A DNA stretch of 61,302 nucleotides from Planctomycetales bacterium (GCA_020426595.1 JAGQPS010000002.1:1-61302), one strand, 5' to 3'; positions 16,306-59,585 are shown, counted from the stretch's first letter. Notes: generated by a model not told the origin, from the sequence alone. Numbers and translations are program-made.

Positions 16306-16357
16306 GCAACCATCTCCGTCAATCAATCGCGGAATCAACTCCCGCGCTGGCCAGGAT

Positions 16358-27863: not shown

Positions 27864-29348
<1,485 letters not shown>

Positions 29349-36624: not shown

Positions 36625-38850
36625 CTACAAACTGAGATCGAACGTCTCTTCAATCGTTCTCAACGCTCTCGTTGCCAATGAAACTGGCTCGGAAAGAAAC
36701 CTTGCTTCGCCTTGTGCGCCCACGTGCAAGTGATGCACCTGTTCGGGAACCGATACGACGACTTGGTAAATCACGGACGCGGTTTCTTCCGTTCCATCGT
36801 GAAGCGTCGTCGTGGGCAATGTCCCCTGATACTTGGTCGAGAGTGAGTTAGGCACTTGTGTCGTGTAGTGACGTGAAATGGAGAGGATTTCTCCGACATG
36901 GACAGCGTCCGGCAGGTGCCTAAATTTCATTCGTAGAGTTTCTCCTTCGGCCAACTGATCGCGATGTCGTTGGTCGACGTAGATCACCGCGACGAACTCG
37001 GACCGATTCGGGGCCACACTTCCCAGTTCCGTCCCTCGCTGAAGAAACGCTCCGATGTTTCCTCGCTCAAGCGGCTGTCCGATCCATTGCGAGAGAGTCT
37101 TGTGTTGAGCGTCCCTCGGTCGTTCGTCGCGCACGGTAGGGGGCGCGATGAAGTGACCGTCACTCGGAGACTTGACGACGAGTTCATCCAACCTCCGTCG
37201 CATATCATCTCGTTGAGCCCGCAAACTGGCAGCGCGCCCTTCCGCTAGTTCGGCTCCGACTCCATCCAAATCCCTTCGTTTCTGTGCTGCCTCCGACTCC
37301 GCCACGGAAAGTCGGCCTTCCAGTTCGGCGAGTTGCAGTTCCAAGGCCGGATCGACGAGTCGAGCAATGACTTGCCCCGCATCGACTGGCCCGCCATCAA
37401 CAACGCCAACGAACTCCAACCGTCCCGCCGTGGGCAACATCAAACGCTGGGATCCCTTCGATTCAATGACGAATGGTGAAGTCGAGAACCACGGGAACGG
37501 CACGGCGAAGACAAGCACGAAGGTTACGGCCAAAACACTCAGAGTGACACCAACCTTTTTCATGTCGAGCCTCTCATTTCGTTCGATCCAGAGGGTTTTG
37601 TATCCCTGCCAGAGAGCGCCACCAACCATTTTGCCAATCGAGACAACGCCGACAATCAGCCCTAGGTTCTGCAAGCCGTAGGGCTGTAGCCAACGAAACA
37701 GGAAGACGGTGATCCCCACGATCAAAACCAACTGATACACCATCGATCCAAGGGAATAGACGATGAACCAGGTTCGCCGTCCGCGCGGCATGAAGGGGTC
37801 CTCCTTCGGCTCGATACCGAAGCAGTGCCAGTAAATCGCCGACTGAAGGAACTTCGTGGCCTTGGTCCGCAGGTTGGGAATCTCGAGGAAGTCCGCCAAT
37901 GCGTAGTATCCGTCGAACTTCATGAGCGGATTGGCGTTGACCAAGACGGTGCTCATCGAAGTGACAAAGATCACGTTGAGGGCCAAGTGGTTTAACACGC
38001 CCGGCGTCGTCCTCCACCAAATAAAAATCGCGATCGCGGAAAGCAGCAATTCCACGACGACACCCGCGAAGGCGACCGCAATCCGCTTCCACTTGTTTTC
38101 AAACATCCATGAATCGGAAACATCGCAGTACAGGGTTGGCGAGAAAACGAGCACCATGATCCCCATGTCATGGCACTCGCCGCCGTAGTATTTGCAGGCG
38201 AGTCCATGGCCGAATTCGTGAAGGACCTTGATGAGTGCCAGGAGACACCACAGATAGAGAACATTCGGCCCCGAGAAGAACTGTTGAAACGTGGGCAGCC
38301 GAGATTGGAATAGATCAAAATTCGCGGCGACGCTTAGCCAAGCCACGGCAACGAGAAATGCGAAAAAGCACAATACGACCGGCTTAAAGATCCATCCGAT
38401 CCAGGGCACCATCCGATCGAGCATTCGATCGGGATCCCATCCGGGAAGTCGGATCGAAAGAAAGTTGGCCACGGTTTGCCGTGCCTGTCGCCACCACTCC
38501 TTGCGAGATTTGATAACGAGTGCCACTCCGCGTCCCGATCGATCGGTGATCAGCAGATTCTTGGCATGTAAGTCGCCAACCAACGTCTGGATGTCCTTGA
38601 TAGCTACCCATGTCCATGGGTACTTCGCGACCATGGCATCCCGCAGCACGGAGAGACTGTGGGTCCCATCAAGCTGCTGAAGCAAGTAGTACTGCTCATC
38701 CTCCAGACGATAGTACTTCAGCGCTATGGGGTCCTTGCAAACCCAATAGCCCTTTCCCTCGAACCCAATCCGACGAAAGACCAAATCTTGTCGCGGACGA
38801 AAAGGAACAGGACGCTGGCTCGCGGATTGAAAAGCCGCCTCTTGGCTCAT
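36625..38850 (-). CDS. Tri-domain protein: PqqD-like (RRE-like) N-terminus, M50/site-2-protease-like membrane metalloprotease and C-terminal HlyD-type adaptor
   Basis: A strong SD site (aaggagag) precedes the ATG. The N-terminus YYRLEDEQYYLLQQLDGTHSLSVLRDAMVAKYPW...LVGDLHAKNLLI follows the PqqD pattern. The polytopic region has HEFGH and a downstream NANPLMKFDGYY (NxxPxxxxDG). After a last TM helix comes a HlyD-like hairpin and coiled coil (GQVIARLVDPALELQLAELEGRL...VVKSPSDGHFI). Confidence 0.85.
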   Translation of the reverse strand: MSQEAAFQSASQRPVPFRPRQDLVFRRIGFEGKGYWVCKDPIALKYYRLEDEQYYLLQQLDGTHSLSVLRDAMVAKYPWTWVAIKDIQTLVGDLHAKNLLITDRSGRGVALVIKSRKEWWRQARQTVANFLSIRLPGWDPDRMLDRMVPWIGWIFKPVVLCFFAFLVAVAWLSVAANFDLFQSRLPTFQQFFSGPNVLYLWCLLALIKVLHEFGHGLACKYYGGECHDMGIMVLVFSPTLYCDVSDSWMFENKWKRIAVAFAGVVVELLLSAIAIFIWWRTTPGVLNHLALNVIFVTSMSTVLVNANPLMKFDGYYALADFLEIPNLRTKATKFLQSAIYWHCFGIEPKEDPFMPRGRRTWFIVYSLGSMVYQLVLIVGITVFLFRWLQPYGLQNLGLIVGVVSIGKMVGGALWQGYKTLWIERNERLDMKKVGVTLSVLAVTFVLVFAVPFPWFSTSPFVIESKGSQRLMLPTAGRLEFVGVVDGGPVDAGQVIARLVDPALELQLAELEGRLSVAESEAAQKRRDLDGVGAELAEGRAASLRAQRDDMRRRLDELVVKSPSDGHFIAPPTVRDERPRDAQHKTLSQWIGQPLERGNIGAFLQRGTELGSVAPNRSEFVAVIYVDQRHRDQLAEGETLRMKFRHLPDAVHVGEILSISRHYTTQVPNSLSTKYQGTLPTTTLHDGTEETASVIYQVVVSVPEQVHHLHVGAQGEARFLSEPVSLATRALRTIEETFDLSL

Positions 38851-39104: not shown

Positions 39105-41102
39105 GTGGAAAGCCGGCTTGATCGGCTAACATCACGTATCGACGACTTGCAGGGGCGCGCCGGGGATGTCCGGGTTTTCCTTGGCGCCTTTTTGCCGATA
39201 GTCGTCGAGGAGACCCGAGCCGACGCGGGCGTCGTTTGGCGTCCTGTGTCGGCGACACAGTGGGCGGCCGTCGTCGACGTGGGACTCGATCAAACCTTGT
39301 TGCCGGAGTCCGCCGAGGCGATTGAAGACAATAATCGACGGCTCGTGGCCTGCTTCGAGAGTGGCGAAGCTTCATTGGGCCTCGATGCCTCGGAAACGGA
39401 CTCGCCTCTCGGTCGCTATTGGGTTGTCGTTTGCCCGTTGTTTATCCAACGCCAACCGGCGGGCTGCCTGCAGCTTTTCTTTGATCGAACGGCCGACAAG
39501 GAACCGGAACTTGCCTTGGAACTCGCCGAGCATGCCGCGGGTTTGGCTAGTCTCGAACTGGAACGTTCAACGCGAGCTCCCGACTCTGGCGCCATTTCCA
39601 GCGCGACGCCAACACGCGAATCGATCGGCGAGCTGTCCCTGAAATTACATCGAAGCCTGAGCCTCGAATTGACTTGTGCCGTTGGAGCGAACGACGGTCG
39701 CCTGTTCCTCGACGCGGACCGTGTTTCGGTGTTTGTGTCTCGCGGCAAGTCGACTCGCGCGTTGGCCATAAGCGGTCAAGAAAAGGTGAATCAACATGCC
39801 GTGTTGGTCCGCAAGCTAACCGCTGTCGCGCGACTCGTGGCCGATCGAAAGTCACCGATGACGTATCTCGGGGCGAGTGAAGCGCTCGATGCGGAGGCTC
39901 AGGAAGTCGTCGCGGAATTGATCGACGAATCGGGCTTGAGGAATCTGGTCGCGATCCCGCTCCTCGCCGAGGATGAAGTGACGCTTGATGAATCGTCACT
40001 GCGTCGACGCCGCCGGTCTGGCTCGAGTCCGGCGTTGGTGGGTGTTCTGTTGGCGGAATGGTCGGGTGACGCGCGGCGTCCGACTCACCAATTGGCCAAC
40101 CTCGAGACCCTCGGCCAACATTTAGCTAGTTCGATCCACGGTTCACTGCATTTTCGCCGTGTACTTTTATTGGAGACTCGATATCGAATTGGTCTCGCCT
40201 GGGAGTGGTTCCATGGCCGACGCCTACAATTGGCCGCACTTATTCTGACAGCGGTCATCGGTGTTCTTTTGGCATTGGTCCTGGTTCCATGGACCTATCG
40301 TGTGAAGGCGGATGGTCGCGTGCTCCCAGCGACTCGCGCCAACGTATTCGCTCCCGCCGACGGCTACTTGAGATCCGCGAACCTGTCGGTTGCTTCCAAC
40401 CAGCGAGTTCACCAGGGCGATGTGTTGCTGCGTTTGGAGAGTGATTCCCTCGAGCAAGAACTTCATCGGGTCGACGGGGAACGGGCGGAATTGGAGAGTC
40501 GTGCCCTCGCATTACAAGCTCAGATCCACGCCACGGTTCTCGACCGGGAAGCCAATCAATTGCGACTCGATCTCGCGCAGACGCAGAGTCAATTGCAGTC
40601 CGTCGAAACGTCGCTCGGCTTATTGAGAAAACAGCTTGACGACTTGACGATCACCGCTCCGATCGATGGAGTCGTGATTACTTTTCAGGTCGAGAAGTGG
40701 TTGACCGATCGGCCTGTGAATCGAGGGGAATTGCTGCTGGAGATCATGGACGATTCAGGCCCTTGGCACTTGGAAGTGCGAGTTCCCGCGAAACGCATCG
40801 AGCATGTGGAAACGATGCGCGATCAGCTGGGAGAATCGTCGCCGCTGACGGCGGAGTTCTTTCTCGTGGCGGCCCCGGAGCAAGTTTTGGAGGGGCCGGT
40901 CTCGCGGATTTCTTCACGAGTTGAAAGCACGGGACAAGAAGGTCCAACTATCGAGATGATCGTGGAGCTCAACGGCATTGAATTCGCTCGACCCAAAATC
41001 GGAGCCGAGGCGCGGTGTCGTATTCCCTGCGGCAAGCAGCCGCTCGGGTACGTCCTCTTTGGAGACGTGGTCGACTATTTGCGAACTCGCCTCTGGTTCT
41101 AG
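39105..41102 (+). CDS. GAF-GAF-TM-HlyD-like protein
   Basis: GTG start, divergent from 36625..38850. It has two GAF-like modules, one TM helix (LAALILTAVIGVLLALVLVPW), a HlyD hairpin (APADGYLRSANLSVASNQRVHQGDVLLRLES), a coiled coil and a beta-barrel. It is collinear with 16358..18637. Confidence 0.8.
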   Translation: MESRLDRLTSRIDDLQGRAGDVRVFLGAFLPIVVEETRADAGVVWRPVSATQWAAVVDVGLDQTLLPESAEAIEDNNRRLVACFESGEASLGLDASETDSPLGRYWVVVCPLFIQRQPAGCLQLFFDRTADKEPELALELAEHAAGLASLELERSTRAPDSGAISSATPTRESIGELSLKLHRSLSLELTCAVGANDGRLFLDADRVSVFVSRGKSTRALAISGQEKVNQHAVLVRKLTAVARLVADRKSPMTYLGASEALDAEAQEVVAELIDESGLRNLVAIPLLAEDEVTLDESSLRRRRRSGSSPALVGVLLAEWSGDARRPTHQLANLETLGQHLASSIHGSLHFRRVLLLETRYRIGLAWEWFHGRRLQLAALILTAVIGVLLALVLVPWTYRVKADGRVLPATRANVFAPADGYLRSANLSVASNQRVHQGDVLLRLESDSLEQELHRVDGERAELESRALALQAQIHATVLDREANQLRLDLAQTQSQLQSVETSLGLLRKQLDDLTITAPIDGVVITFQVEKWLTDRPVNRGELLLEIMDDSGPWHLEVRVPAKRIEHVETMRDQLGESSPLTAEFFLVAAPEQVLEGPVSRISSRVESTGQEGPTIEMIVELNGIEFARPKIGAEARCRIPCGKQPLGYVLFGDVVDYLRTRLWF

Positions 41103-41365: not shown

Positions 41366-44300
41366 ATGAACCGACTCCGAATTGACGACCTCCACGTCGT
41401 ATCTCCGGTTAATGAGTCCGAGCAGGATCAGAGTTTTGGAGCCGGCTTGCGGCGACGGCGGCCCAAGGAATTTCGTGGCGGTGCCGTCGAGGTGTTGGAA
41501 GCCAAGCAGATGCTATCCGCCACGGCGGCCGTAGTGCTCAAGAATGGGGTTTTGTCGGTCCGAGGCACGGAGCGAAATGATCGTATCGTCGTGGCGGAGA
41601 AGCGAGGGCTGATTCGTGTGTCGATCAATGGCCGCTCCGTCAATATTTCAAATGCCGGAAAGGCCGCGAAGGCGTCCGCGGTGAAGCGAGTCGAGGTGTC
41701 GGGTCTGGGAGGAAATGACCGAATTGATGTCCGAACTCTCCGGCGATCGGCGGTGTTGCGTGGTGGTGCCGGTAATGACACGTTGCTAGGCGGCGGTCGT
41801 GCTGATCGCCTCGATGGCGGAAGTGGCAATGACACACTCCGAGGCTACGCCGGAAACGATCGAATACTCGGCGGATCTGGCAACGACTCGATCGACGGTG
41901 GTTCGGGAAACGATTATCTCGACGGACAGTCGGGCAACGACCGCATCAAGGGCGGTACCGGAAACGACGTCTTGCAGGGCGGCAGCGGCACGGATTCGCT
42001 CTACGGAGGCTCGGGAAATGATCGACTCACCGGTGGCGACGGCGCGGATCGTCTGTTCGGTGAAGCGGGCGACGATCGGCTCTGGGGCGACAAGCAAGAT
42101 ACGGTTCTCGACGACCGTTCGGGGAGTGATCGAGTCTCGATAGCCAACTCGGCACCCACCGACATACTCCTGAGCGCGCGACGGCTGACCGAGGGTGTTA
42201 ACGGTGCCGAGATCGGGCGAATTACGGTGGTCGACGCGGATGTGAACGACCAACATACGCTGACCGTTTCCGACAGCCGCTTTGAAGTTTTCAACGGCGT
42301 ACTCAAGCTCAAGGACAACGTAGCGATCGATTTCGAGACGGAACCGTCGGTGCAAATCTCGATTACGGCGAAGGATTCAAGCCAAGCCACCAAGACATCC
42401 GTGTTTTCGATCGAGGTAATCGATCTCAACGAGCTACCTGTCATCGGCAATCTGAAAACACTGGAGATCGGGCGTGATTCGGCGAGCACGCTTGTTAACC
42501 TCAGCATTGTCGATCCGGACGGAGATGCCTTTGAGGTTCATGCCTCGTCGAGCAGTGATCAAGTCTCCGCGACTATCGTCAATAATGCGCTCAAACTCAC
42601 GCCTGCCCTAGGATTTGTTGGAACATCGACGATCACGGTTCAAGTCAAGGACAAGACATCGGGCAAGTCCCTCGAGAAGGAGTTCCAACTTGTCGTTCGT
42701 GGCACGCGAGCCGAATTGGTAAATGGCGTCTTGGCGATTCGCGGATCCAATCAGGCCGACCACATTCGACTCAACGCGGAAGGCGCTTCCACTTCCGGCA
42801 AACTCGTCGTTCTGGATGGCGAGGCCGTGATTGGCACTTTCGAGGCCAAGAACGTTCGAGCGATTCAAGTCGAAGCGGGCGCCGGAGATGACATCATCGA
42901 CCTGACACAGGCCGTGATGAGTGCTTGGGTCCATGGCGGAAGTGGCAACGACACCATCCATGGTGGTTCAGGAGCCGATCACCTGTTTGGCTCGACGGGA
43001 GTCGACAAGATCTACGGCAATTCCGGCGCGGATGTGATCTACGGAGGCGACGATCAGTTCAACGATAAGGGAGAGTTGGTCGGAGTGGTGGACGGAGGCA
43101 CGGATGTTGACTTCCTTTCCGAAGGTACCGGCCGCAAGCTAGTCGCCTCAACCGATGATCGAGACATCGAAGCCATGGACTTCGAGGAGCGATCCTACTT
43201 CGATCTGTTGCACCAGTTTCGAGATGCCCATGGCTTTGTAATCTCCCAGACCGGTGACGGAATCGACCAGCGTGGCGACGCCATGCTTTTCACCGGACTG
43301 GCGGCGACGTTGGCTGCCCAGCGTGGTGATTCCGGTGCGGTGCTCGAACTGCTCAAGACCTTGAAAGACGAGCCGTTTGTTGACGAACTTGGGCGAACTC
43401 GCCTCGTGAGACATCCCGAGGTTTGGGATTACGTCAATGAGAACGGAGTTTATGTGCGGGAACGCCATGCCCCCGTGACCAAGGACGGCGTTGTCGGTGT
43501 TATCTCGGCCGTCTACTACGCATTCAAGGCTGGCGGCATGACGGAAGAGGTCCGTTCGTTGGCCAAGGAGGTCGCGACAAAGTACATCGATTATCTAATC
43601 GCCAATAACTGGATGACGATCGACCGGTACCCAGAGCATTACTGGGAAACTCGAGAACTCCCATCCGACGAAAACGACCCCGACAGTGACAAGAAGTCGT
43701 ACTTCTCGAACGTCTTTGGCGAGGGTGGTACCCGGGTCATGTACAAGGGAGTCGACGGTTACGCGTTGATGCCCAACGACCGATACGCGCTGAAGAACGC
43801 CGCGGCGGAAATGGGAATCGCCACCCAAGGCTGGTCGGTATGGGGTGGCCTAGGGGTGACGTTGGGCAAGGTCCTGGGTGATACCACCGCCGACTTTATC
43901 AGCGGTGTCGCCGACGATCTCGGCGATTGGGCAAGCGAGCGCGTGGGTGTATTCCTCAAGAGTATCTCGTTTGACGAGAGCTATAGCTTTCATGTGATTC
44001 CGGGACTGGATTGGACCCTCGTCAAGGGCGACGTCAAGCTCGAGATCTCGTCAGCCAACCGTGCGGGTATCGCCAACCTCGTGGGCGACGCCATTCGGTC
44101 CACGATCAAGACTCTCTTGGGTTCCACCATCGACAATGGCACGGAACTGGTCGCCCTGGCTAAGCAACTCTCGGATCTCCAAGGTCGTATCGTCGACCAG
44201 TTGTTGGATTCACTCCCCTCGTGGCTGCAAGGTGATAAGTGGCGTCCCTTGGTTGGCGACGCGATCCAGCAAGTCCTACCTTGGCTCAGTGGTGATGTAT

Positions 44301-45781
44301 TCGGTGAGCTGATTGCCTTCACGGTCTCGCATCGCATGGGAGAGTCCGACAACATCGTGGCTCACCTTTCATTCTGGCCAACATTGGTGGCCCTTGAGTC
44401 TCGGCCTGAACTCGTCGATTTGCTCATGCCTTCGATTCGGAACCTCGACAAGAAACTGAATCCCAGTTCGAGCGATGATTTCTTCGACACCGGCGCCTCC
44501 AAGATGGACATGGCTCTCTATGCGTGGCTCGCCGGTGAAGACAAGTTGGTGAGCAAGTACATCGAGTTGTTTGAATCGGATCGTCGATTCGACGCTCTCG
44601 CCTATGCGTGGAAGAAGGACCACAAGGAAAACGTCGAAAAGATCCTCGGTGATGGCGCGGGCACGAAGGATTCGGGCAATCATCGCCTGGAATATTTGCT
44701 GCTCAAGTCGTTGCAGCGGAGAGGCACTCCGCCCGCGTTCAGCGCGATCAAGAACGACTGGATCAAGCATTGGCGGGAGCAACTGAAGGCAATCGGAGAT
44801 CAGGCGGCCAAGGCTTGGCAGGACCTAAAATCCAACTTGGTGAAATTCGCTCAGGCCCTCGCGAAAGAGTTTGGAGTCGGCCTGGACAAGATCGGCTCGG
44901 CTCTCTGGAAAGTTTCCCAAAGTGTCGAGGGAATCGCGGCGGCTCTTTGGTCGGTCGAACAAAACCTGGGCAAGGTGGCCGCGACGCTCTGGAGCTTGAA
45001 ACCCGATCTAGGGCAAGTCGCATCGGCGCTTTGGAGCGTCAAGCAAGATGCCGTGCAAGTCTTCCAAGCAATGCTCAACGGAGCCAAGGTTGGGTTCGTT
45101 GACGCCATTCAAGCGGTCGTCGATGGCAAGCTCATTTCGGGCAACGCCGCCAGCGTGGCGAAGTTCTTGATCCTCGACGTGAAGACGGGCATTGGTACGG
45201 GAATCCTGCAACTCAAGAACTGGCTCAATGGCGATCTCGCCGGAGCTTTTTGGGGCGCGGTCAACGGTGCCAACTTGGGTTGGAAGGATGCGTTGAATGG
45301 CCTAACTTCCTCGGGCTTGGTTGCGAACAATTCCTACGAAATGGCCAAGTTCCTACTCAACACCGCCAAAGCGAATTTGAGTACCACGGCGACCGCCATC
45401 TCTCAATGGCTCAACGGAAACGTCAGTGCCGCCTTCTGGGCGATCTGCACTGGAGCGGGCAAGTCGCTCAAGGACGCGGTCAACGGAATCGTCTGGGCGG
45501 GACTCGTGAAGAACAACTCCTACGAAGTCGCCAAGTTCCTCCTCAACTCCGCCGGTGCCGGACTCTCCAAGACCGCCAAGGCGATCTCCGACTGGCTGGG
45601 TGGCGATCGTGATGCCGCCTTCTGGGCGATCGCATCCGGAGCTGGGAAGGGGTATGTCGACGCGACAAAGGCCCTGATCTGGGCTGATCTCCTCGGCAAC
45701 TCGTATACGACGGTGCTGAATTACCTTAAGTCGAAGCTTGGCCTTACCAGCGCTTTGAAAGTCGTCAACAGCATCTTCTAG
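41366..45781 (+). CDS. Large RTX (hemolysin-type calcium-binding repeat) protein with cadherin/Ig-like modules and a repeat-rich C-terminus
   Basis: 1471 aa. The N-terminal block has about 12 GGxGxD nonapeptides (GGAGNDTLLGG...GGSGNDRLTGGDGADRLFGEAGDDRLWGD). A cadherin-like module (ITVVDADVNDQHTL...VIDLNELPV) and a second RTX block (HGGSGNDTIHGGSGADHLFG...) follow. Next come ~700 aa of unknown function and then two kinds of tandem repeat. Confidence 0.9.
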   Translation: MNRLRIDDLHVVSPVNESEQDQSFGAGLRRRRPKEFRGGAVEVLEAKQMLSATAAVVLKNGVLSVRGTERNDRIVVAEKRGLIRVSINGRSVNISNAGKAAKASAVKRVEVSGLGGNDRIDVRTLRRSAVLRGGAGNDTLLGGGRADRLDGGSGNDTLRGYAGNDRILGGSGNDSIDGGSGNDYLDGQSGNDRIKGGTGNDVLQGGSGTDSLYGGSGNDRLTGGDGADRLFGEAGDDRLWGDKQDTVLDDRSGSDRVSIANSAPTDILLSARRLTEGVNGAEIGRITVVDADVNDQHTLTVSDSRFEVFNGVLKLKDNVAIDFETEPSVQISITAKDSSQATKTSVFSIEVIDLNELPVIGNLKTLEIGRDSASTLVNLSIVDPDGDAFEVHASSSSDQVSATIVNNALKLTPALGFVGTSTITVQVKDKTSGKSLEKEFQLVVRGTRAELVNGVLAIRGSNQADHIRLNAEGASTSGKLVVLDGEAVIGTFEAKNVRAIQVEAGAGDDIIDLTQAVMSAWVHGGSGNDTIHGGSGADHLFGSTGVDKIYGNSGADVIYGGDDQFNDKGELVGVVDGGTDVDFLSEGTGRKLVASTDDRDIEAMDFEERSYFDLLHQFRDAHGFVISQTGDGIDQRGDAMLFTGLAATLAAQRGDSGAVLELLKTLKDEPFVDELGRTRLVRHPEVWDYVNENGVYVRERHAPVTKDGVVGVISAVYYAFKAGGMTEEVRSLAKEVATKYIDYLIANNWMTIDRYPEHYWETRELPSDENDPDSDKKSYFSNVFGEGGTRVMYKGVDGYALMPNDRYALKNAAAEMGIATQGWSVWGGLGVTLGKVLGDTTADFISGVADDLGDWASERVGVFLKSISFDESYSFHVIPGLDWTLVKGDVKLEISSANRAGIANLVGDAIRSTIKTLLGSTIDNGTELVALAKQLSDLQGRIVDQLLDSLPSWLQGDKWRPLVGDAIQQVLPWLSGDVFGELIAFTVSHRMGESDNIVAHLSFWPTLVALESRPELVDLLMPSIRNLDKKLNPSSSDDFFDTGASKMDMALYAWLAGEDKLVSKYIELFESDRRFDALAYAWKKDHKENVEKILGDGAGTKDSGNHRLEYLLLKSLQRRGTPPAFSAIKNDWIKHWREQLKAIGDQAAKAWQDLKSNLVKFAQALAKEFGVGLDKIGSALWKVSQSVEGIAAALWSVEQNLGKVAATLWSLKPDLGQVASALWSVKQDAVQVFQAMLNGAKVGFVDAIQAVVDGKLISGNAASVAKFLILDVKTGIGTGILQLKNWLNGDLAGAFWGAVNGANLGWKDALNGLTSSGLVANNSYEMAKFLLNTAKANLSTTATAISQWLNGNVSAAFWAICTGAGKSLKDAVNGIVWAGLVKNNSYEVAKFLLNSAGAGLSKTAKAISDWLGGDRDAAFWAIASGAGKGYVDATKALIWADLLGNSYTTVLNYLKSKLGLTSALKVVNSIF
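44891..45058 (+). repeat. Intragenic 4 x 42-bp (14-aa) tandem repeat in RTX protein 1
   Basis: The units are IGSALWKVSQSVEG, IAAALWSVEQNLGK, VAATLWSLKPDLGQ and VASALWSVKQDAVQ. Confidence 0.85.
45158..45715 (+). repeat. Intragenic 3 x 186-bp (62-aa) tandem repeat in RTX protein 1
   Basis: The unit is AKFL(I/L)L..........I..WL(N/G)G.....AFW.A..GA.....DA.....W..L..NNSYE. Copies start at 45158, 45344 and 45530, and a half unit precedes them. Confidence 0.85.
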
Positions 45782-45876
45782 TTGTTGTCGATCCCCAGTC
45801 TTGTTCGTCGCCTAAGTCGACCTCCATCAGCTTCGCTGAATCGTTATCCCATAAGACTCTCGAGGAGTTCCTAGCC

Positions 45877-46080
45877 ATGCCGAACCAACCAGCAATCACC
45901 GAGGGTGCGTTGCCGGACGATCGTCCGATGAAGGCCGCCATGGAACCTGATTCGCCCGATCCTGGGCCAGTGTTTGGAGCGGATGTCGATCCTTCCGAGG
46001 ATTGGGACCGCTCCGTTTCCAGCGATGCCACGGAATCGCAATTCGATTCGATTGAGCCTGTTTCAGGCGAAGCCGAGTAA
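45877..46080 (+). CDS. Small, very acidic Pro/Asp-rich hypothetical protein (67 aa)
   Basis: GAGGAG lies 9 nt upstream of the ATG. The gene starts 95 bp downstream of RTX gene 1. Its composition resembles the ORF at 49871..50122 (many DP, EP and SD dipeptides, with few basic residues: three Arg and one Lys). Confidence 0.4.
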   Translation: MPNQPAITEGALPDDRPMKAAMEPDSPDPGPVFGADVDPSEDWDRSVSSDATESQFDSIEPVSGEAE

Positions 46081-46578
46081 GCAACGACAAACGACCCAGT
46101 CGTTTGGTTCCACTCGAACCGTTGAGCTGGGCGAAAGTGATGTCGGCTTGGTGGACACAAGCGATGGTCACCGCGCCCCGCTTTCAACGTTTGATTGACC
46201 TTCAAGCATGGCAATCCTCTGGCCTGCCGAGGCGCTTGGAGTTGGGGTTCCGAGCCCCCGCATAGGTGCCTTGGGATGCGCCAAACCGCTTCTAACCTCA
46301 CCCGCACATGTTTCTCGGGACGCTTGATGCGGCATGCTCCCCTATTTCGGGTTTGCCTCGAACGCCGCACGACTCGCGGATGACAATCCGTTGATAACTG
46401 AGTTTTATTCCTGACCGCGCGACCTGACGGCGTTCGCTCTTCGATTCACTTAGGTCGATTTCCTAGGAAATGCCTGGTTGGTACTTTCCGAGCGAGGCCC
46501 CCGGGATGGACAATCCTGCCGCCTCCCTACCAAGACCTTGACGGTTCGCCAAAATGCCTCTCATAAGGATCGAGGGCC

Positions 46579-49500
46579 ATGAGTCGTCTCACTATCACTG
46601 ATCTCGTCATTTCATCGACTCCGAGTCTCGAGGATCAAGACCAGCAATTCGGAGCCGGTATTCGTCGGCGACGTTTGCGGGAATTCCAGTCAGCGACGGC
46701 GGAAGTGCTCGAGTCGAAGCAGATGCTCTCGGCGACGGCGACCGCGGTGTTCAAGAACGGCGTCCTGACGGTGAATGGCACGAGCCGCAGCGAGAAGATC
46801 GCGGTTACCGAAAACAAAGGCCAACTCCGAGTCCAAGTCAACGGCAAGAGCCTGCGGATCGCGGGGGCCGGCAGCCAGGTCGCCGCGACTCGAGTGAAAC
46901 AAGTGGCGGTCAACGGCAAGGCCGGCAACGATCGCATCGATGTTTCGTCCGTCAATCGAGTAACTAGGCTCGATGGCGGAGCGGGCAATGACACGATCCT
47001 TGGCGGCAAGAAAGGTGACACGATTTTCGGTGGATCGGGCAATGATCGACTCTACGGCCGAGCCGGCAATGACCGGATTTTCGGTGGGTCGGGCAACGAC
47101 CTCCTCGAGGGTGGATCGGGCAATGACTTTCTCGACGGACAATCGGGAAAGGACCGCATTAAGGGTGGCAGCGGGAACGATACGCTCAAGGGTGGAACGG
47201 AAAACGATCAGTTGATCGGCAACGAGGGGTCCGACCGACTGTATGGCGAATCGGGTGATGACGTTTTGATCGGAGGCGACTCCACCGACGTGTTGTATGG
47301 AGGTGCTGGGAACGATGAGTACATGGTCGGGAACGATGGCGACACAAGCGTCATTCGGGACGACCAGAAGGTTGAGGCCAATGATGGGAGCATCGAGAAA
47401 TTCATCAGCAAGCCGAAGGTAAACGTCAACTCTGTCAACACTCGGCGACCGACCCTGTTGGTAATCACACAAGGAGCGGCCACGACCAATGTTGGTGGGG
47501 CTGGCACGGGACGCCATGTGTATCCGTGGCAAGAGACCTTGGCTCAAGCGATGGAGGACGACTTGCGCAAGGCGGGCTCGCAAGTCCACACCATGGTCGT
47601 GAGCTGGAATTCCCTCGCTACGAATACGACTCAAACTGAGCGAGTCGCCAACCACATCAAGGAGTTTCTCGCCGCTCGATCCCAGCAGTGGGATGTTGTA
47701 TTGGTCGGACATAGCCGAGGAGCGATCTTCAACCAAGAGATTGCGGGACTTCTGGGCGATCCCAAGAACATGAATGTGTTGCAACACGTCATGATCGACC
47801 CGACGGCCGCGACTTCGATGGGCGATCAATATCCTCAGGGAACACCTAGGAATGTCGATCGAGCCATTGTCTACGACGATGGCTATCAGTTTCTTCCATT
47901 CGCGGCTGTTCGTGATGGTGAGCGAGTTGCCGGAGCGGAGTATCAACGAGTATCGCTGCCGGATACCGGGTATTACGATACCGCGGCGAGTCACAATCGA
48001 ATCGCTAAGTGGTATGCCCAAGGCGCTTACCATGCGGATCTTGACTGGCTGCTCTCGCAGAAGTCGACCGGACGGTATGCCGGCGAACAGACGAGTGACA
48101 ATGGTCGCGAATATGTCAGTGTCTCTGGCCCGGCCAAGGAACAGAACCTGATCGACGTCGGCTTCGATCCCAATCGCAACGGCGACATGCATGGTTACAT
48201 CAGCGTGCTGGGCGTCGGTGGAGTCGACATCAAGATCGGCAAGAGTGGGGTGCAAGCCGGAGGCGGCGTGACTTTTGGTGGATCAGCGGGAGTCGGCCTT
48301 TCCCAGGATGGCGTTTCGATCCATGTCACCGGTCCCGGTGCCGGGCCGCTCAATTACGGCTACGGGGTTGTCATCACCAAGGACGAGGCCACGGTCAACG
48401 CGGATGTCGGACCGCTCAATATCACGCTCAGCACCAAGGGTGGATCGATCTATGTCGGCGGAAAGAGAATCACGTTCAACAAGACGGTCGACAAGGCGGG
48501 CAAGTGGGTCGTAAACCAAATCCTGGCTTCGCGCGAACGCATCTCGACCACGCTGCAGAACTTCGAGCGCGTTCGGATCGAGAAGTTCGATCAAGCCGGA
48601 AAGCTCGTGGCCAAAGGCTGGAAGAATGGCTCGCAATGGGTGTCCCAGTCACTCAACAGCGCTGGCAAGGTATTGCTTCAGTGGACCTACCACGGCGGGT
48701 ATGGTTCGGCTCTCAAGATCTTGTCGCAATACGATGCTCAAGGAGCATTGTTGGCCACCCAGGAATTCGCCACGAATGGCGTTCGCTTGATCAACAAGTA
48801 CATCAACTCAAGCGGTCAGTGGGTCTCGCAGAAGTTCGATTCGGCCGGAAAGATGGTGAGCGAGTGGATTTATCACGGCAAACTCGGCTCTCAGCTCAAG
48901 CAATGGCGGGCCTGGACCTCGGCCGGCTTATCGAATTGGAAGGAATACGCAACCAATGGAGTGATGGTCGCCGAACGGTTCCTCGACAGTGCAGGGAAGT
49001 GGATCTCCAAGTCGTTCGACACCGCTGGCAAGCTGCTCAATCAGTGGAGCTACTTTGGCGGTTACGGGTCGGCGCTCCAGCAATGGAAATCGTGGAACGC
49101 CGCCGGAACATTCACCGGCATGCGGGAGTACCTCTCCAACGGAGTCAAGACTCTTGATCGTTGGTTGAACTCGAGTGGCAACTGGATCTCGCAGAAATTC
49201 AACTCGACTGGTCGGCTCGTAAATGAATGGATGTACCACGGCGGATACGGCTCCGTTCTGAAGCAATACAAAGCCTGGAGCGCGTCGGGGACGTTCACCA
49301 ACTGGTCTGAGTACTCGACCAACGGTGTCAAGACAGCCACTCGCTGGCTCGATTCAAGGGGACGGTGGATTTCCCAACGCCTTAACAGCGCGGGCAAGGT
49401 CCTCAATCAATGGCTCTACTTCGGAGGCTATGGCTCGAAGCTCCAGGAATGGGCCGAATGGTCGAGCGGCGGCAAGTTGCTCAATCTCGAGCGGTTCGCG

Positions 49501-49695
49501 ACCAACGGACTCAAGACCCTCGACGCTTACTGGTCAACCGCCGGCAATTGGGTGGAACGCACCTATCAGGACGGTAAGGAGATCGCCGTGAAGATCTGGG
49601 ACTCGGCCGGAAAGTACTTGGGCGACCAGTACAAGAACTTCAAGGACGCCGCGTCCAAGTTGGATCCGACCACAAAGAACTGGTGGCCATTCTAA
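46579..49695 (+). CDS. RTX protein with an alpha/beta-hydrolase (lipase-like) domain and C-terminal ~60-aa tandem repeats
   Basis: 1038 aa. The first ~240 aa are collinear with RTX protein 1, including the GGxGxD block. The central region has a nucleophile elbow VLVGHSRGA (GxSxG). The C-terminal repeats are listed separately. Confidence 0.9.
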   Translation: MSRLTITDLVISSTPSLEDQDQQFGAGIRRRRLREFQSATAEVLESKQMLSATATAVFKNGVLTVNGTSRSEKIAVTENKGQLRVQVNGKSLRIAGAGSQVAATRVKQVAVNGKAGNDRIDVSSVNRVTRLDGGAGNDTILGGKKGDTIFGGSGNDRLYGRAGNDRIFGGSGNDLLEGGSGNDFLDGQSGKDRIKGGSGNDTLKGGTENDQLIGNEGSDRLYGESGDDVLIGGDSTDVLYGGAGNDEYMVGNDGDTSVIRDDQKVEANDGSIEKFISKPKVNVNSVNTRRPTLLVITQGAATTNVGGAGTGRHVYPWQETLAQAMEDDLRKAGSQVHTMVVSWNSLATNTTQTERVANHIKEFLAARSQQWDVVLVGHSRGAIFNQEIAGLLGDPKNMNVLQHVMIDPTAATSMGDQYPQGTPRNVDRAIVYDDGYQFLPFAAVRDGERVAGAEYQRVSLPDTGYYDTAASHNRIAKWYAQGAYHADLDWLLSQKSTGRYAGEQTSDNGREYVSVSGPAKEQNLIDVGFDPNRNGDMHGYISVLGVGGVDIKIGKSGVQAGGGVTFGGSAGVGLSQDGVSIHVTGPGAGPLNYGYGVVITKDEATVNADVGPLNITLSTKGGSIYVGGKRITFNKTVDKAGKWVVNQILASRERISTTLQNFERVRIEKFDQAGKLVAKGWKNGSQWVSQSLNSAGKVLLQWTYHGGYGSALKILSQYDAQGALLATQEFATNGVRLINKYINSSGQWVSQKFDSAGKMVSEWIYHGKLGSQLKQWRAWTSAGLSNWKEYATNGVMVAERFLDSAGKWISKSFDTAGKLLNQWSYFGGYGSALQQWKSWNAAGTFTGMREYLSNGVKTLDRWLNSSGNWISQKFNSTGRLVNEWMYHGGYGSVLKQYKAWSASGTFTNWSEYSTNGVKTATRWLDSRGRWISQRLNSAGKVLNQWLYFGGYGSKLQEWAEWSSGGKLLNLERFATNGLKTLDAYWSTAGNWVERTYQDGKEIAVKIWDSAGKYLGDQYKNFKDAASKLDPTTKNWWPF
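48625..49533 (+). repeat. Intragenic tandem repeat: 5 full units of ~60-61 aa, plus partial units on both sides
   Basis: The unit is (N/D)S.G.W(I/V)SQ.F(N/D)(S/T)AGK....W.Y.GGYGS.L.QW..W...G.......EY.TNGV.....(W/F)L. Confidence 0.85.
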
Positions 49696-50133: not shown

Positions 50134-52086
50134 GTGAGCGCGCGTCGATTTGAATGCAATACGGATTCCCTCAAGTCAATCGAGTGTTGGAACAGAGCTT
50201 CCCACACACGTCACTTGTCGACCTTGCTCGTTTTACTATCCCAGGTGGTGTCTCTCGTGGCGTTGCCCTCGCCGATGTTGTCCCTGCGTCAGTGCTTCCA
50301 GCTTCAACTGGCCGGTCCATGCCAGTTCGAGCCGTGGGATACCCGGCTTGAACTGCTCGAGTATCGAGCGGGCCAGGTGCTATTCGAGCCAGACGAAGAA
50401 GGCTCGGCCGCGTTTCTACTCGTCGCGGGGCGGCTCAGACTATACGGCCGCAACTCAACGATGGGACAGGTTGCTCCCGGGACATTGGTCGGTGGCCATA
50501 GCCGGGCCGAACAATGGAATCGGCAGTTGGGATGCCGGGCATCCGAGCACTCCTGGGTCTACCGGTGGCCTCGTGTTGATTTCGATGATTTCCTACGGGC
50601 TCACCCGCGCTTGGTTCCGGTTTTCGATAAGACGTTGGCGGAGGCCGCGTTCCTTGAGCTGTCAAAGCTCTCCCGCCTCTTGGCGACCGTTCCATCCCAA
50701 CTGCTCATGCCGCTGGTCGATCAGTTGGTTTGGCACGAATTCGATGAACAAGAGATCGAGCTGGACGCGGAGCTCGTGCAGGATGTCTTCGCCGTCGTGC
50801 AGGGCTCGATCGAATTAACAAGCGTCAATGCCTCCGACGGACGCCCCGTATGCGCCTTCGGCCCTGGCGAATTGTTCACATTGCAGGAGTGGCCGCCTGG
50901 CGAAAGACTAAATGTCGCGACGAGCGGCGACGCCATTTGTTATCGTCTCCCGTCGGACGTCCTGGCCCAGTATCGATCCGAATTACCCCTGCTTGAACCG
51001 GCGATTCGGCGTACGTTTCGTCCACCGTCGGAGGTCGCCGATAAACCAGACATGGATCGGTATTCGTTGGTTTTGCGATCCGAAGACGACGGCACACCGA
51101 CGAATTTCAGCGGCGATCCACGAGCCACTCATGAGCAGGACGACAAACTCAAGCTCCGCCCGCTTCTTGAGTTGCTACGGATGGAAGCCCTCGCCAGTTG
51201 CCTACCGCCGCGCCGAATCCTCGGTCTAATCGATTCGGCGCGCGAGCGGCTGTTTGTCGATGGTTCATTGCTCCATGTAACGGGCCATTCGCTCGGAGTC
51301 GAGCAAGAGTGGATTTGTTTGTTGGTCGAGGGAAGTGTCGATGTCGTCGCGGTATCGCCGGTCGAGCGACGCATGGTCGCCAAATTGCTGCCTGGAGAAT
51401 TCTTCCTAATTGAACAACAGGAGTCTCACAAAGTGGGCTCCCTGCCAAAGCACTACGTGGCCAATGGACATGTGCGTTGTCTGATCTTTCCATTGACGGA
51501 CGTATTGCGAGGCTCGTCCACGCCCGAGCAAGCAGCGACGATTCTCGCTCGGCTCTCGGATCGAGAAATCGCGTTCTTAAAACGACGAACCTTGGCGGCG
51601 TCCCAAGGTAACCCGATCCGCCACGCGTCTCGATCTCGAGAGCGATCGATCATTGATCAGCAATATCCATGGATCGGACAAGCCCAGGAATCCGAATGCG
51701 GACTGATCGCACTGGCGACGGTCGCGAGATTTCACCAGTTGCCGGTCAACATCGACGAATTGCGCGGCCGAATTCAGCTGATGCCGCTGGGCCTCAGCCT
51801 TCTAGAAATGCAGCGGATCGCCGAGTCAATCGGTCTGGATGCCGAAGTCCTCCACGCCAACGAGCAAACGCTTGAGACGATAGAACTGCCGGCGGTCTTG
51901 CATTGGAAAGACTCGCATTACGTCGTGCTTTACCGAATTGGAAATGGAACGGTGCTTTACGCCGATCCGGAGATTGGTTTGATCAAGACAACGGTACGTC
52001 ACCTGTTGTCGTCCTGGAATGGACGGCTACTGGCCGTTTCGCCGCGAACTTCGTATCGATCCGACGCGGAATTCAATCCGGTCTAG
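50134..52086 (+). CDS. cNMP-binding-like domains (up to three, degenerate) fused to a C-terminal peptidase C39 domain, with no ABC transporter part
   Basis: The C-terminus QQYPWIGQAQESECGLIALATVARFHQLPV...LPAVLHWKDSHYVVLYRIGNGTVLYADPEIG shows the C39 Cys, His and Asp pattern. The upstream segments resemble CAP/cNMP beta-barrels (EYRAGQVLFEPDEEGSAAFLLVAGRLRLY and VFAVVQGSIELT...FGPGELF and WICLLVEGSVDVV...LLPGEFF). The start may instead be the ATG at 50275. Confidence 0.85.
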   Translation: MSARRFECNTDSLKSIECWNRASHTRHLSTLLVLLSQVVSLVALPSPMLSLRQCFQLQLAGPCQFEPWDTRLELLEYRAGQVLFEPDEEGSAAFLLVAGRLRLYGRNSTMGQVAPGTLVGGHSRAEQWNRQLGCRASEHSWVYRWPRVDFDDFLRAHPRLVPVFDKTLAEAAFLELSKLSRLLATVPSQLLMPLVDQLVWHEFDEQEIELDAELVQDVFAVVQGSIELTSVNASDGRPVCAFGPGELFTLQEWPPGERLNVATSGDAICYRLPSDVLAQYRSELPLLEPAIRRTFRPPSEVADKPDMDRYSLVLRSEDDGTPTNFSGDPRATHEQDDKLKLRPLLELLRMEALASCLPPRRILGLIDSARERLFVDGSLLHVTGHSLGVEQEWICLLVEGSVDVVAVSPVERRMVAKLLPGEFFLIEQQESHKVGSLPKHYVANGHVRCLIFPLTDVLRGSSTPEQAATILARLSDREIAFLKRRTLAASQGNPIRHASRSRERSIIDQQYPWIGQAQESECGLIALATVARFHQLPVNIDELRGRIQLMPLGLSLLEMQRIAESIGLDAEVLHANEQTLETIELPAVLHWKDSHYVVLYRIGNGTVLYADPEIGLIKTTVRHLLSSWNGRLLAVSPRTSYRSDAEFNPV

Positions 52087-52128
52087 AATGATTGATCCGT
52101 GTCCCATCACATTCCCAAGGTGTTTTCC

Positions 52129-52908
52129 ATGTCCGAGGTTCATGCATCCACGGTATTAGGGACAGTCAACGGCTCGCCCGTGAAATGGACCACGTTCCTC
52201 AGCGCGCTGAAGTGCGAGGGAGCCTGGAGTGCCAGCGTGGCGGCCTTGCTTCGATACGTTTTCATCGCCGAGCTCGCTTCTCGCCATCAAATAGCGATCG
52301 CCGACTCGGAGTTGCAGGCGGCGGCGGACCAATTTCGGGCGCGACGAGGCTTGCACAAGGCAAGCGATACCTATCAGTGGATCGCGCAAGAGTTGATCGA
52401 GGAGGATGAATTTGCTCGCCTTGTCGAGCATGAGTTGATCGTCGACAAGTTGAAGCGAGTCTTCTCGGACGAGGCGGTCCAGAACAAGTTCACCGCGGAA
52501 CGGAACCGTTTTGATCGGGCAAGACTGGCGCAAATCGTGGTCGACTCGAAGGGCCTGGCGGACGAGCTGCTAACTCGATTGGTCGAGGATGGCGACGACT
52601 TCTCAACGCTCGCCCGCCAACATTCGTTGGATCAGGACTCGAAGGACAACGGCGGATTTCTCGGCATCTTGAACCGAACCGATATGTCTTCGGAAGTCGC
52701 CGACACCGTATTCGCCAGTCAACCAGGAAACACGCTCGGCCCCTTTCGCATCGCCGGCGCCTACCACCTCGTGAAGACTCTCGAGCTACTCCCGGCGAGT
52801 CTCGATGAGGCGACTAGTGAGTTACTCCGCAATGAGATGCTCGACGAGGCGATCACACTGGCGATCGCGGCCGCGGATATCGAATTGAGGTTTGATATCG
52901 AGGACTAA
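52129..52908 (+). CDS. PpiC/parvulin-type peptidyl-prolyl cis-trans isomerase (SurA/PrsA-like)
   Basis: An N-terminal chaperone-like helical part is followed by ARLAQIVVDSKGLADELLTRLVEDGDDFSTLARQHSLDQDSKDNGGFLGIL...GNTLGPFRIAGAYHLVK. The ORF is open from the GTG at 52099. Confidence 0.85.
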   Translation: MSEVHASTVLGTVNGSPVKWTTFLSALKCEGAWSASVAALLRYVFIAELASRHQIAIADSELQAAADQFRARRGLHKASDTYQWIAQELIEEDEFARLVEHELIVDKLKRVFSDEAVQNKFTAERNRFDRARLAQIVVDSKGLADELLTRLVEDGDDFSTLARQHSLDQDSKDNGGFLGILNRTDMSSEVADTVFASQPGNTLGPFRIAGAYHLVKTLELLPASLDEATSELLRNEMLDEAITLAIAAADIELRFDIED

Positions 52909-53007
52909 TCGTGGCTCGCTGGGGCGAGCAAGGTGTTGCATGGATTAGAGCGAGGTACGGGAATTCCGCTCCGGCCATCGCGTCACGCGGGGAGGTCGAT
53001 ACCTTTC

Positions 53008-57928: not shown

Positions 57929-58833
57929 CGAGATTCGGGGATGGCATCGAAATGAAGTGTTCCAACTTCTCCCGGCTTCACCCGCAGCTCTCGGTTGTCT
58001 AGTTCGGCCCATACTCGCACGAGGTTCCGAACTGGCTGTACCTCGGGATCGATGAAGACGATTTTCCCCGTCAACTCGATTGGCTCGTTCCGAGCGTCAC
58101 TGGGGCGAAATACGACCTGTTGTTGCGGAGTTAGCGACCGGGCGAATGCCGCGTTCACATAAATCTCCGCCCTGACGACATCCAAGCGTATGAGACGCAC
58201 GACGGGGTCGCCCGGATTAACCCACTCGGCATTCTCGTGATGCCGTTTGACGACGATGCCGGTGAACGGCGCCGTTATTCGACGTCGAGCCACGCGTACC
58301 TGGGCAAGATTGGCCTCGCGCTCCTTGAGTTGAGCGGTGAGTTCCGCCTCGTCATGATCGCGTTGAGCCTGCTCCAGCGACAAGCGGGATTTCTCCAACT
58401 CGAGCTGAAGCTTCTCCAGTTCCGTGCGGGACACCGTGTTGGTGAACAGCTCGTTCGCATAATGGGACATCCGAAGCTGGGAATCGTTGACTTCAATGGT
58501 CTTTTGGGCCAGTCGCTGATCCACGTCGCTCGATGCCTTGATAATTGCAATTTGGTGGCCCAGCAACGCCACCTCGAGTTCGGCGTCGGCTAAATCGCTA
58601 TCGAGCCGGGCAATCAAATCTCCCTTTTGTATCGTCTCTCCTGGCTCGAATTTAATCTCCTCGATCACGCCCGCTTCGCGCGCCGGAACATCGATATCGG
58701 CGACCGGAAACAACTGAGCCTGATAGGAAGTTTCTCCCTCTTGAGCGCGAGCCGTCACCGCTTGCCCTACGGCCCAGACGTAACACCACATCGTTCCCAT
58801 CGCGATAACCGCGTATTGTGTTCCACGAGACAT
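57925..58833 (-). CDS. HlyD-family periplasmic adaptor
   Basis: One TM helix (YAVIAMGTMWCYVWAVGQAV), a lipoyl-like hairpin (AREAGVIEEIKFEPGETIQKGDLIARLD), a coiled coil, then APFTGIVVKRHHENAEWVNPGDPVVRL. Its stop overlaps the TolC stop by 4 bp (convergent). The ORF is open to 58923. Confidence 0.85.
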   Translation of the reverse strand: MSRGTQYAVIAMGTMWCYVWAVGQAVTARAQEGETSYQAQLFPVADIDVPAREAGVIEEIKFEPGETIQKGDLIARLDSDLADAELEVALLGHQIAIIKASSDVDQRLAQKTIEVNDSQLRMSHYANELFTNTVSRTELEKLQLELEKSRLSLEQAQRDHDEAELTAQLKEREANLAQVRVARRRITAPFTGIVVKRHHENAEWVNPGDPVVRLIRLDVVRAEIYVNAAFARSLTPQQQVVFRPSDARNEPIELTGKIVFIDPEVQPVRNLVRVWAELDNRELRVKPGEVGTLHFDAIPESR

Positions 58834-59585
58834 CTTATGTCCTCGATTGATTCCCAGACGGTGATTGTTCCAAACCGTTTTCCAACTCGTTCGCTCACCA
58901 CGAGAAGACAGTACACCCTCCATCGCCTTACTCCTGAAAAACAGCCACGATAGGAAGCGTCTTGGCCATGTTCCGATTCAAGGGCAACAAGCCGGCATCC
59001 GGTGAGACGCCTCTCGATATGGCACTGGCGATAACGGTAACCGCAGTTTGCTAGCAGCCGAGAATTGGCAAGCTGATTGTATTCACGGACACTCGCTGAA
59101 TTCCGCATCGACCGGTCTAGAACGCCGAAATTTGTTGGGTCACGGCGTATCCTCTCCGCCATTCAGCTCATCGATTGTAGGACCACTTCCACAGCCCAAC
59201 GGGTGGCGAATGGCCTGTCCGTTCAGCCTTGACTCGTTGGGGCGAATGCCGACAATTTCGACTCGTTGGCTCGACAAGGATGCCGGTCATTCCCTCGCGA
59301 ATGACGTGGGAATTCCTAGCCTAGAAACTCGCTCGACTCGAACGAAACGGCTCATGCAAGTGCCTTTCATTCCCGGAGAGCGAGGCCTGGTCGGCTCATC
59401 TATCGGAGCGGACCACGGGTTTGGATTCCGACTGCCAACATGCGTCGGTTCGAGTTGCTCCGCCATGTCGGAGTGGCTCGATCGTCGTGGAGATCGATTG
59501 CGACCGAGGCGACTGAGTCGTCTTGCTCGCAGGGACTCGACATCATTGATTTCAAGCGATCGAATTCGGCAAGGAGGCCGATGAG

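Follow-up and report, generated by a model that had tools for sequence, protein, structure and literature searches.

Two large planctomycete RTX proteins with a candidate double-glycine leader and an export motif, encoded beside a stand-alone C39 peptidase at a secondary-SecA locus

C39 peptidase domains, such as those of ComA, LahT and PCAT1, read the spacing of hydrophobic residues at positions -4, -7, -12 and -15 of double-glycine leaders. The published consensus of these leaders is LSXXELXXIXGG (PMC1538908). A further N-terminal signal, with the consensus RRLxxExLExRxLLA, goes back to work on Rhodopirellula baltica (Studholme et al. 2004), and its Pfam model is PF07595, Planc_extracel; this planctomycete export motif marks surface proteins by the dozen in each genome, most of the largest ones among them, and in Tuwongella immobilis a variant of it occurs in 52 proteins, among them 8 of the 10 longest (PMC8567305). 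The secondary SecA_DEAD locus comprises genes for a SecA paralogue without wing and scaffold domains, M50-like plus HlyD, GAF plus HlyD and HlyD/biotin-lipoyl proteins and often an OEP protein, with no ATP-binding cassette (ABC) transporter; the main text of the paper describing it proposes no protein substrate and does not mention C39, cyclic-nucleotide (cNMP), rotamase/peptidyl-prolyl isomerase (PPIase) or RTX proteins (PMC4452313). The present work concerns two genes, P1 and P2, on a DNA stretch of 61,302 nucleotides from a Planctomycetales bacterium (GCA_020426595.1 JAGQPS010000002.1:1-61302; this whole stretch is called the window). They encode large RTX proteins that begin with a candidate double-glycine leader, followed by a putative copy of the planctomycete export motif.

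Double-glycine leaders, C39 peptidases, the PF07595 signal and the secondary-SecA locus have each been described before. Their combination on proteins of more than 1000 residues, with a stand-alone peptidase and without an ABC transporter, appears to be undescribed; in the open-access full-text literature we found no article that connects Planctomycetes with double-glycine leaders and no later work on the secondary-SecA locus. We lean towards the view that P1 and P2 are cargo of the surrounding cluster, cleaved by its C39 peptidase and exported N-terminus first through a type-I-like assembly that contains the SecA paralogue. The two genes and their N-terminal segments are the following.

41366-45781, plus strand: P1, 1471 residues, candidate substrate
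41366-41443, plus strand: P1 residues 1-26, double-glycine-type leader MNRLRIDDLHVVSPVNESEQDQSFGA, conserved family-wide, predicted cut between A26 and G27
41444-41527, plus strand: P1 residues 27-54, basic linker GLRRRRPKEFRGG, then putative divergent planctomycete export motif AVEVLEAKQMLSATA
41528-42115, plus strand: P1 beta-rich module NGVLxVxGT..D.I (residues 55-118) and first RTX block (residues 119-250)
46579-49695, plus strand: P2, 1038 residues, candidate substrate
46579-46656, plus strand: P2 residues 1-26, double-glycine-type leader MSRLTITDLVISSTPSLEDQDQQFGA
46657-46740, plus strand: P2 residues 27-54, basic linker and putative export motif GIRRRRLREFQSATAEVLESKQMLSATA
46741-47313, plus strand: P2 beta-rich module and RTX block

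The N-termini of both proteins are well defined, because in-frame stops precede the ATG by 2 codons in P1 and by 5 codons in P2; a purine-rich stretch resembling a ribosome-binding site lies ahead of each start. BLASTP aligned residues 1-268 of P1 with residues 1-259 of P2 at 54% identity (E 2e-79). The collinear N-terminal module that the preliminary description of this DNA had put at ca. 240 residues thus extends over some 260, and its gap-free count of 28 identities in the first 50 residues was reproduced exactly. Beyond the module the two proteins diverge, as had also been stated, with similarity at the repeat level only and nothing meaningful in BLASTP. RTX repeats (PF00353) occupy approximately residues 119-250 of either protein; here the earlier account was right about the block, but its ca. 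12 GGxGxD repeats become 10-11 G-x-G-x-D units per block. Within the module identity amounts to 56% in amino acids and 56% in nucleotides, and different codons are used at 91 of the 145 residues that are identical between the proteins. The similarity is therefore old and not the product of a recent copy or of gene conversion, and the divergent codons beneath identical residues indicate that the protein sequence of the module, leader included, is maintained by selection. Conservation is highest at residues 28-54 (67% identity), and among the open reading frames (ORFs) of the window the arrangement FGAG...RRRR...LE.K.MLSA occurs in P1 and P2 only. A hydrophobic segment of the Sec or Tat type is absent, with no 19-residue stretch anywhere in P1 or P2 exceeding a mean Kyte-Doolittle value of 1.6. 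No common element was found in the upstream DNA of the two genes. The 800-bp gap between them (45782-46578) has a sole ORF (45765-46370, minus strand), which is Arg-rich, matches no family and looks spurious.

Relatives were collected with a profile of the P1 and P2 N-termini (residues 1-116) in an exhaustive HMMER search of 1.84 billion representative proteins (E<=1e-3). The 59 matches comprise 13 proteins of class A, 44 of class B and 2 others, one of which has an ordinary Sec-type signal ahead of the beta module. In class A the match begins at profile position 1-4, and a leader with the consensus RIxIEDLPxxExLSxEEMxxIFGA/G (the slash marks the predicted cut) is followed by a basic linker, LE.LE.R.LMAA and usually an NGVLxVxGT beta module. 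Class B proteins have no leader; they open directly with the basic stretch and LE.LE.R.LLA, and the median distance of the motif from Met1 is 19 residues. A second profile, from the class-A alignment, retrieved 11 short metagenome fragments only, and degenerate DNA-pattern scans added two leaders from genomes and seven from metagenomes; the pattern matches that did not fit the leader profile (10 of 15 in genomes, 16 of 23 in metagenomes) were chance hits in unrelated taxa. Altogether some 29 class-A leaders were obtained, from Planctomycetota wherever the source is named, Gemmataceae included. The passengers behind the same leader differ, and those of P0003, L014 and L016 have neither beta module nor RTX block; the leader is therefore a portable module. 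The P1 and P2 leaders matched no Pfam or NCBIfam model significantly, and a word-index protein search with P1 residues 1-128 returned no match, P1 itself being among the misses. The leaders of the relatives weakly matched type-2 lantibiotic leader models, namely lacticin 481, lichenicidin A2 and the Mersacidin family (E 0.002-0.2, not significant alone), and these matches are confined to the leader region. One leader-bearing RTX protein (P0045, locus L003, 387-3077) has a Peptidase_C39_2 domain in its own passenger.

Numbered relative to a cut after G-A, the 22 class-A leaders that were tabulated have the following residues.

Position -21: Ile in 20 of 22
Position -19: Asp in 20 of 22
Position -18: Leu in 22 of 22
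Position -17: Pro in 20 of 22
Position -15: hydrophobic in 68%
Position -12: hydrophobic in 95% (Leu in 16)
Position -11: Ser or Thr in 18 of 22
Position -8: Glu or Asp in 22 of 22
Position -7: hydrophobic in 59%
Position -4: hydrophobic in 77% (Ile in 12)
Position -3: hydrophobic in 22 of 22 (Phe in 15)
Position -2: Gly in 22 of 22
Position -1: Ala in 22 of 22
Position +1: Gly in 22 of 22
Positions +2 to +6: Arg or Lys in 45-64%

The charge of these leaders switches at GAG, from acidic before to basic after. By its residue pattern the class-A family matches the canonical double-glycine leader LSxxELxxIxGG. P1 and P2 retain I(-21), D(-19), L(-18), E/D(-8), F(-3), G, A and G(+1), and P1 additionally fits the consensus at -12 and -15. 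The proposal made earlier, that the segment ending in FGAG is a double-glycine-type leader for the neighbouring C39 protease, thus gains support from 22 leaders with invariant G(-2) and A(-1), from the catalytic residues of the C39 domain and from the linkage of the genes, with cleavage as the prediction. The position of the cut has to be moved, however: the scissile bond is likely FGA/G, one residue before the end of FGAG, because a cut after GAG shifts all conserved positions, and with them the hydrophobic register, out of place. Asp-Leu-Pro at -19 to -17 is nearly invariant (e.g. in L003, L004 and L025), with the proline absent from P1 and P2; the Leu-Pro bond may be a target of the neighbouring parvulin-type PpiC-like protein.

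Behind the predicted cut, residues 29-52 of P1 and P2 read RRRR...EVLE[AS]KQMLSA. By homology to the 44 class-B proteins that begin with the motif, residues 27-54 contain the planctomycete export motif RRLxxExLExRxLLA in divergent form. The RRRR...LE.K.MLSA segment had been likened before to an N-terminal motif of many large planctomycetal secreted proteins, and this motif equals the PF07595 signal; class-A and class-B relatives match PF07595 with E values of 1.5e-5 to 0.15, their scores falling slightly short of the gathering cutoff. The linker is variable, with 9-17 residues from the GA/G cut to the LE.R core. A sharp drop in conservation after FGAG, as envisaged in the preliminary description, is not seen: there is a dip in the basic linker only, and conservation recovers at the export motif. 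The same text had called N-terminal targeting of RTX proteins unusual, which is only partly right, since within Planctomycetota RTX proteins starting with the motif are common. Linkers of the Gemmataceae type (P0004, P0006, P0014, P0066, P0068, L014, L016) often have R[RS].F[RQK]P.[FL]E after GAG; this is superficially twin-arginine-like (RRxF), with no hydrophobic core behind it.

Pfam and NCBIfam scans delimit a cluster of 22 kb around P1 and P2, which by its gene content is the 'secondary SecA_DEAD' or type-I-like locus of Kamneva, Poudel & Ward (PLoS One 2015). Besides P1 and P2 it contains the following genes.

36625-38850, minus strand: M50 intramembrane metalloprotease-HlyD fusion, 5 predicted membrane helices, HEFGH at residue 211, NPLMKFDG at about residue 313
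39105-41102, plus strand: GAF domain and HlyD-type adaptor, one membrane helix
50134-52086, plus strand: cNMP-binding and C39 peptidase domains, stand-alone, without ABC or membrane domain; candidate leader peptidase
52099-52908, plus strand: PpiC/parvulin-like protein with remote similarity to TIGR04500 'peptide maturation system protein', below the family cutoff
52933-54912, plus strand: SecA paralogue of 659 residues with DEAD motor, preprotein-binding and second P-loop domains, without scaffold/wing domain
55865-57928, plus strand: TolC/OEP-like outer-membrane channel
57925-58923, minus strand: short HlyD/RND-type membrane-fusion protein of 331 residues, corresponding to the third class of HlyD at the published locus, with a counterpart in L002

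The C39 domain (residues 511-639, ca. nt 51664-52050) aligns its Gln, Cys, His and Asp with those of PCAT1, and all four orthologues (window and three others) retain the catalytic Cys, His and Asp. A genome scan with this protein as single query gave no relative, and a word-index search at 1e-10, which is too strict a threshold, returned its own entry only. The start of the gene is ambiguous: the longest ORF begins at GTG 50134, the database gene call (P0001, 609 residues) at ATG 50257. The sole hydrophobic stretch of the protein, residues 31-49, spans ATG 50257, and the later start removes about half of it. The M50-HlyD protein matches daptide_HExxH (1.3e-60, below cutoff) and YydH/LiaK (1.4e-11). 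With respect to the PpiC-like protein, one characterised member of the TIGR04500 family, MirC, which is also PpiC-like, serves as partner chaperone of the SurA type in a cluster for peptide maturation that has a PCAT as well (PMC13097080), and the literature citing TIGR04500 deals with graspetide clusters. Because MirC acts as such a partner, the analogy supports a holding or presenting role here. In the whole window neither an ABC transporter domain (Pfam, NCBIfam) nor, in any frame, an LSGGQ motif was found. Some 20 kb upstream of the cluster, on the minus strand, lie a GAF-HlyD gene (791 residues, 16358-18736) and a short HlyD gene (365 residues, 15238-16338), with no adjoining SecA, C39 or substrate gene. 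Elsewhere in the window are the typical planctomycete pair PSCyt1/PSCyt2/PSD1 (1092 residues) and DUF1501 (494 residues) at 24503-29348, as well as DUF1598 and sulfatase genes; this gene content assigns the window to the planctomycetes.

The surroundings of the leader-bearing genes in other genomes and metagenomes were compared with the window as follows.

L001 (GCA_041398765.1): substrate, 985-residue protein, 96-residue protein, PpiC-like, cNMP-C39, M50 and GAF
L002 (CP036433.1): substrate, short HlyD, M50-HlyD, GAF-HlyD, SecA paralogue, PpiC-like and cNMP-C39
L003: substrate, 311-residue protein and, at the contig end, PpiC-like
L004/L020 (a Gemmataceae genome): substrate, 377-residue protein, PpiC-like, kinase and C39
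L040 (metagenome, 121-1172): ORF of about 58 residues (from Met) with a perfect class-A leader, PpiC-like gene directly after

The most constant neighbour is the PpiC-like gene, which stands beside the leader-bearing gene in every locus with sufficient flank; a C39 gene is near wherever the flank is long enough (window, L001, L002, L004). The window and L002, which are the most complete loci, both have the full M50-HlyD/GAF-HlyD/SecA set; between them the M50-HlyD proteins are 43% and the SecA paralogues 55% identical. Around three leaderless class-B controls, on contigs of 6-17 kb, none of the cluster genes was found. This distribution, with C39 and PpiC-like genes beside leader-bearing genes and absent beside leaderless relatives, gives comparative support to the C39 assignment and is consistent with a double-glycine-type leader, rather than the export motif or the RTX block, travelling with C39 and PpiC. 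The short ORF of L040 encodes either a truncated substrate or peptide-sized cargo. Several genes right after a leader-bearing gene have no significant Pfam match (L001 12598-15906, L003 3364-4299, L004 12208-13341, L014 3113-4075; 96-985 residues). They sit between the leader-bearing and the PpiC-like gene where the contig extends, a place taken by P2 in the window, and could be partner or immunity genes.

For the passengers of P1 and P2, sequence searches gave no relative of solved structure. In P1 the order is two-part leader, beta module, RTX block, a cadherin/Big_9-like region, a second beta module with RTX block and a remainder of ca. 880 residues. The second copy (residues 441-590, 42686-43135) consists of an internal NGVLxxxGS..D.I beta module and a short RTX block and is 31% identical to the N-terminal one; the beta module is therefore reused within the passenger. 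The final 880 residues or so are largely helical, give no significant Pfam or PDB match and end in repeats of about 62 residues, ..AAFWAI..GAGK...A...L..NSYE.AKFLLN.. (45200-45778). The P2 passenger has an alpha/beta-hydrolase-like core (47350-48200) with GHSRG at residue 377 and a weak match to Abhydrolase_6 (E 0.0018). Towards its C-terminus (48600-49600) lie five repeats of about 61 residues, SAGK..QW.YHGGYGS.L.QW, for which no Pfam or PDB relative was found.

These features suggest a route in which the cytoplasmic cNMP-binding C39 peptidase would recognise the leader (residues 1-26) and cut at GA/G. Residues 27-54, with the Arg-rich stretch and LE.LE.K.MLSA, would become the new N-terminus and be engaged by the truncated SecA paralogue, which may act as ATPase in place of an ABC transporter. 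The chain would then be threaded N-terminus first through an assembly of M50-HlyD, GAF-HlyD, short HlyD and TolC-like proteins, while a holding function, for the large unfolded cargo or for its leader, probably falls to the PpiC/SurA-like protein. The RTX block would emerge early, fold on calcium outside and help to pull the remainder, a mirror image of classical RTX secretion, in which the C-terminus goes first. The cNMP-binding and GAF domains suggest cyclic-nucleotide control.

Several points weigh against this proposal. The leaders of P1 and P2 are themselves divergent, with Ser or Gln at -4, Gln at -7 and without the Pro(-17) of 20 of the 22 relatives. The exact cut site is uncertain, because the invariant G(+1) is foreign to classical double-glycine leaders. 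PF07595 does not match P1 or P2 even at E<=10, which we ascribe to the divergence of their motif copies (Lys for Arg; QMLSA). Few loci (4-6) are informative on the neighbourhood, the contigs of the class-B controls are short (6-17 kb), the SecA paralogue is seen in the window and L002 only, other contigs ending too early, and the genome could have an ABC transporter gene outside the window. Features, conservation, catalytic residues and conserved neighbourhood are observations; we infer that the leader is cut, in which order the steps follow, by which route the proteins leave and what the SecA, M50 and PpiC-like proteins do.

The neighbourhood data also bear on a different use of the leader, as a mask whose removal by the C39 peptidase, a sensor of cyclic nucleotides, exposes the motif, with export by the general RRLxxExLExRxLLA pathway instead of the neighbouring SecA/HlyD/TolC genes. 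The motif is at the extreme N-terminus in 44 of the 59 relatives, a cut at GA/G would place it 9-17 residues from the new end, the leaderless relatives do not stand beside the system, and C39 and PpiC accompany the leader-bearing genes more constantly than the SecA paralogue does. However, the whole SecA/M50-HlyD/GAF-HlyD set accompanies substrate and C39 in the window and L002, M50 and GAF do so in L001, and a dedicated envelope-spanning apparatus is encoded alongside with no other obvious cargo. We regard the mask as an unlikely explanation, but one to be taken seriously.

Cleavage could also be assigned to the M50 protein, which would remove the targeting region at GAG or within or after LE.LE.K.MLSATA and leave another role to C39. 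Its HExxH and NxxPxxxxDG-like motifs are intact, it resembles metalloproteases that remove leaders of peptides made by the ribosome and modified after translation (daptide_HExxH, YydH/LiaK), and it is conserved in L001 and L002. That the conserved leader positions fit the rules of C39 and no known M50 site, and that L004 has C39 and PpiC-like genes but no M50 gene within the part of the contig seen, makes this assignment improbable. It is partly compatible with cleavage by C39, since the two proteases could act in succession.

The C39 domain might instead be a receptor for an uncut leader that serves as docking or chaperone-binding tag, as with the C39-like domain of HlyB, which is inactive. 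C39-like domains are substrate receptors in RTX transporters (3zua match), and the leaders of P1 and P2 are polar at -4 and -7. HlyB-type C39-like domains are without the catalytic Cys, whereas Cys, His and Asp are present here and conserved in the four orthologues, and all 22 leaders have G(-2) and A(-1); a docking tag is thus very improbable.

Finally, that P1 and P2 are ordinary type-I (C-terminal signal), Sec or Tat substrates with a merely structural shared N-terminus, as RTX repeats, nearby HlyD and TolC genes and the superficially twin-arginine-like RRRR might suggest, is scarcely credible: the RTX block lies 790-1220 residues from C-termini that are unrelated in the two proteins, no hydrophobic segment follows the arginines, the 61 kb hold no ABC transporter and the same leader occurs on non-RTX passengers. 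Sec, Tat and C-terminal type-I signals were rejected for lack of a hydrophobic core and of an ABC transporter in the window.

If P1 and P2 are indeed cleaved by C39 and exported by the surrounding cluster, double-glycine/C39 processing extends from peptides to proteins of more than 1000 residues, and a tripartite exporter can be driven by a SecA-like motor, not by an ABC transporter. We know of no export machinery for the planctomycete export motif. In P1 and P2 this motif stands behind a leader pointing to the secondary-SecA locus and its C39 peptidase; the two proteins offer concrete candidate substrates with a predicted cleavage site, and they are the first candidate cargo for that locus. 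A generalisation would be that the SecA paralogue with M50-HlyD, GAF-HlyD and TolC forms an ABC-independent, N-terminus-first exporter of RRLxxExLExRxLLA proteins, the leader being a cNMP-gated safety catch removed by C39 on demand; we offer it as a speculation with the odds against it.

Among described systems, the locus of Kamneva et al. shares with the window the truncated SecA paralogue, the M50-like plus HlyD, GAF plus HlyD, short HlyD and OEP proteins and the lack of an ABC transporter; here, C39, cNMP-binding and PPIase partners and leader-bearing candidate cargo are recognised in addition. The PF07595 signal is likewise a basic stretch with E.LE.[RK].[LM]L[SA]A ahead of surface-type domains including RTX repeats, but in P1 and P2 it stands behind a 26-residue leader and not at the extreme N-terminus, with Lys for Arg and QMLSA. 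Similar to the double-glycine/C39 systems of class II bacteriocins, type 2 lantibiotics, ComC and microcins, P1 and P2 have an acidic, probably helical leader of ca. 26 residues with a G-A end, and a catalytically complete C39 peptidase is encoded nearby; the LSxxELxxIxG[GA] spacing is that of the family consensus, from which P1 and P2 deviate at -4 and -7. Unlike those leaders, the class-A ones have an extra N-terminal RIxIEDLP, an invariant Gly(+1), a hydrophobic -3 and a second targeting motif after the cut. In PCAT/AMS systems the cargo is a peptide and C39 is fused to an ABC transporter, whereas here the cargo has 1038-1471 residues and C39 is part of a free cytoplasmic protein with a cNMP-binding domain. 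With HlyA and its HlyB-HlyD-TolC exporter, P1, P2 and their cluster have RTX nonapeptide repeats, HlyD-type adaptors and a TolC-type channel in common; RTX block and targeting are C-terminal in HlyA, whereas in P1 and P2 both are N-terminal, the cluster is without an ABC transporter, and the leader is probably cleaved.

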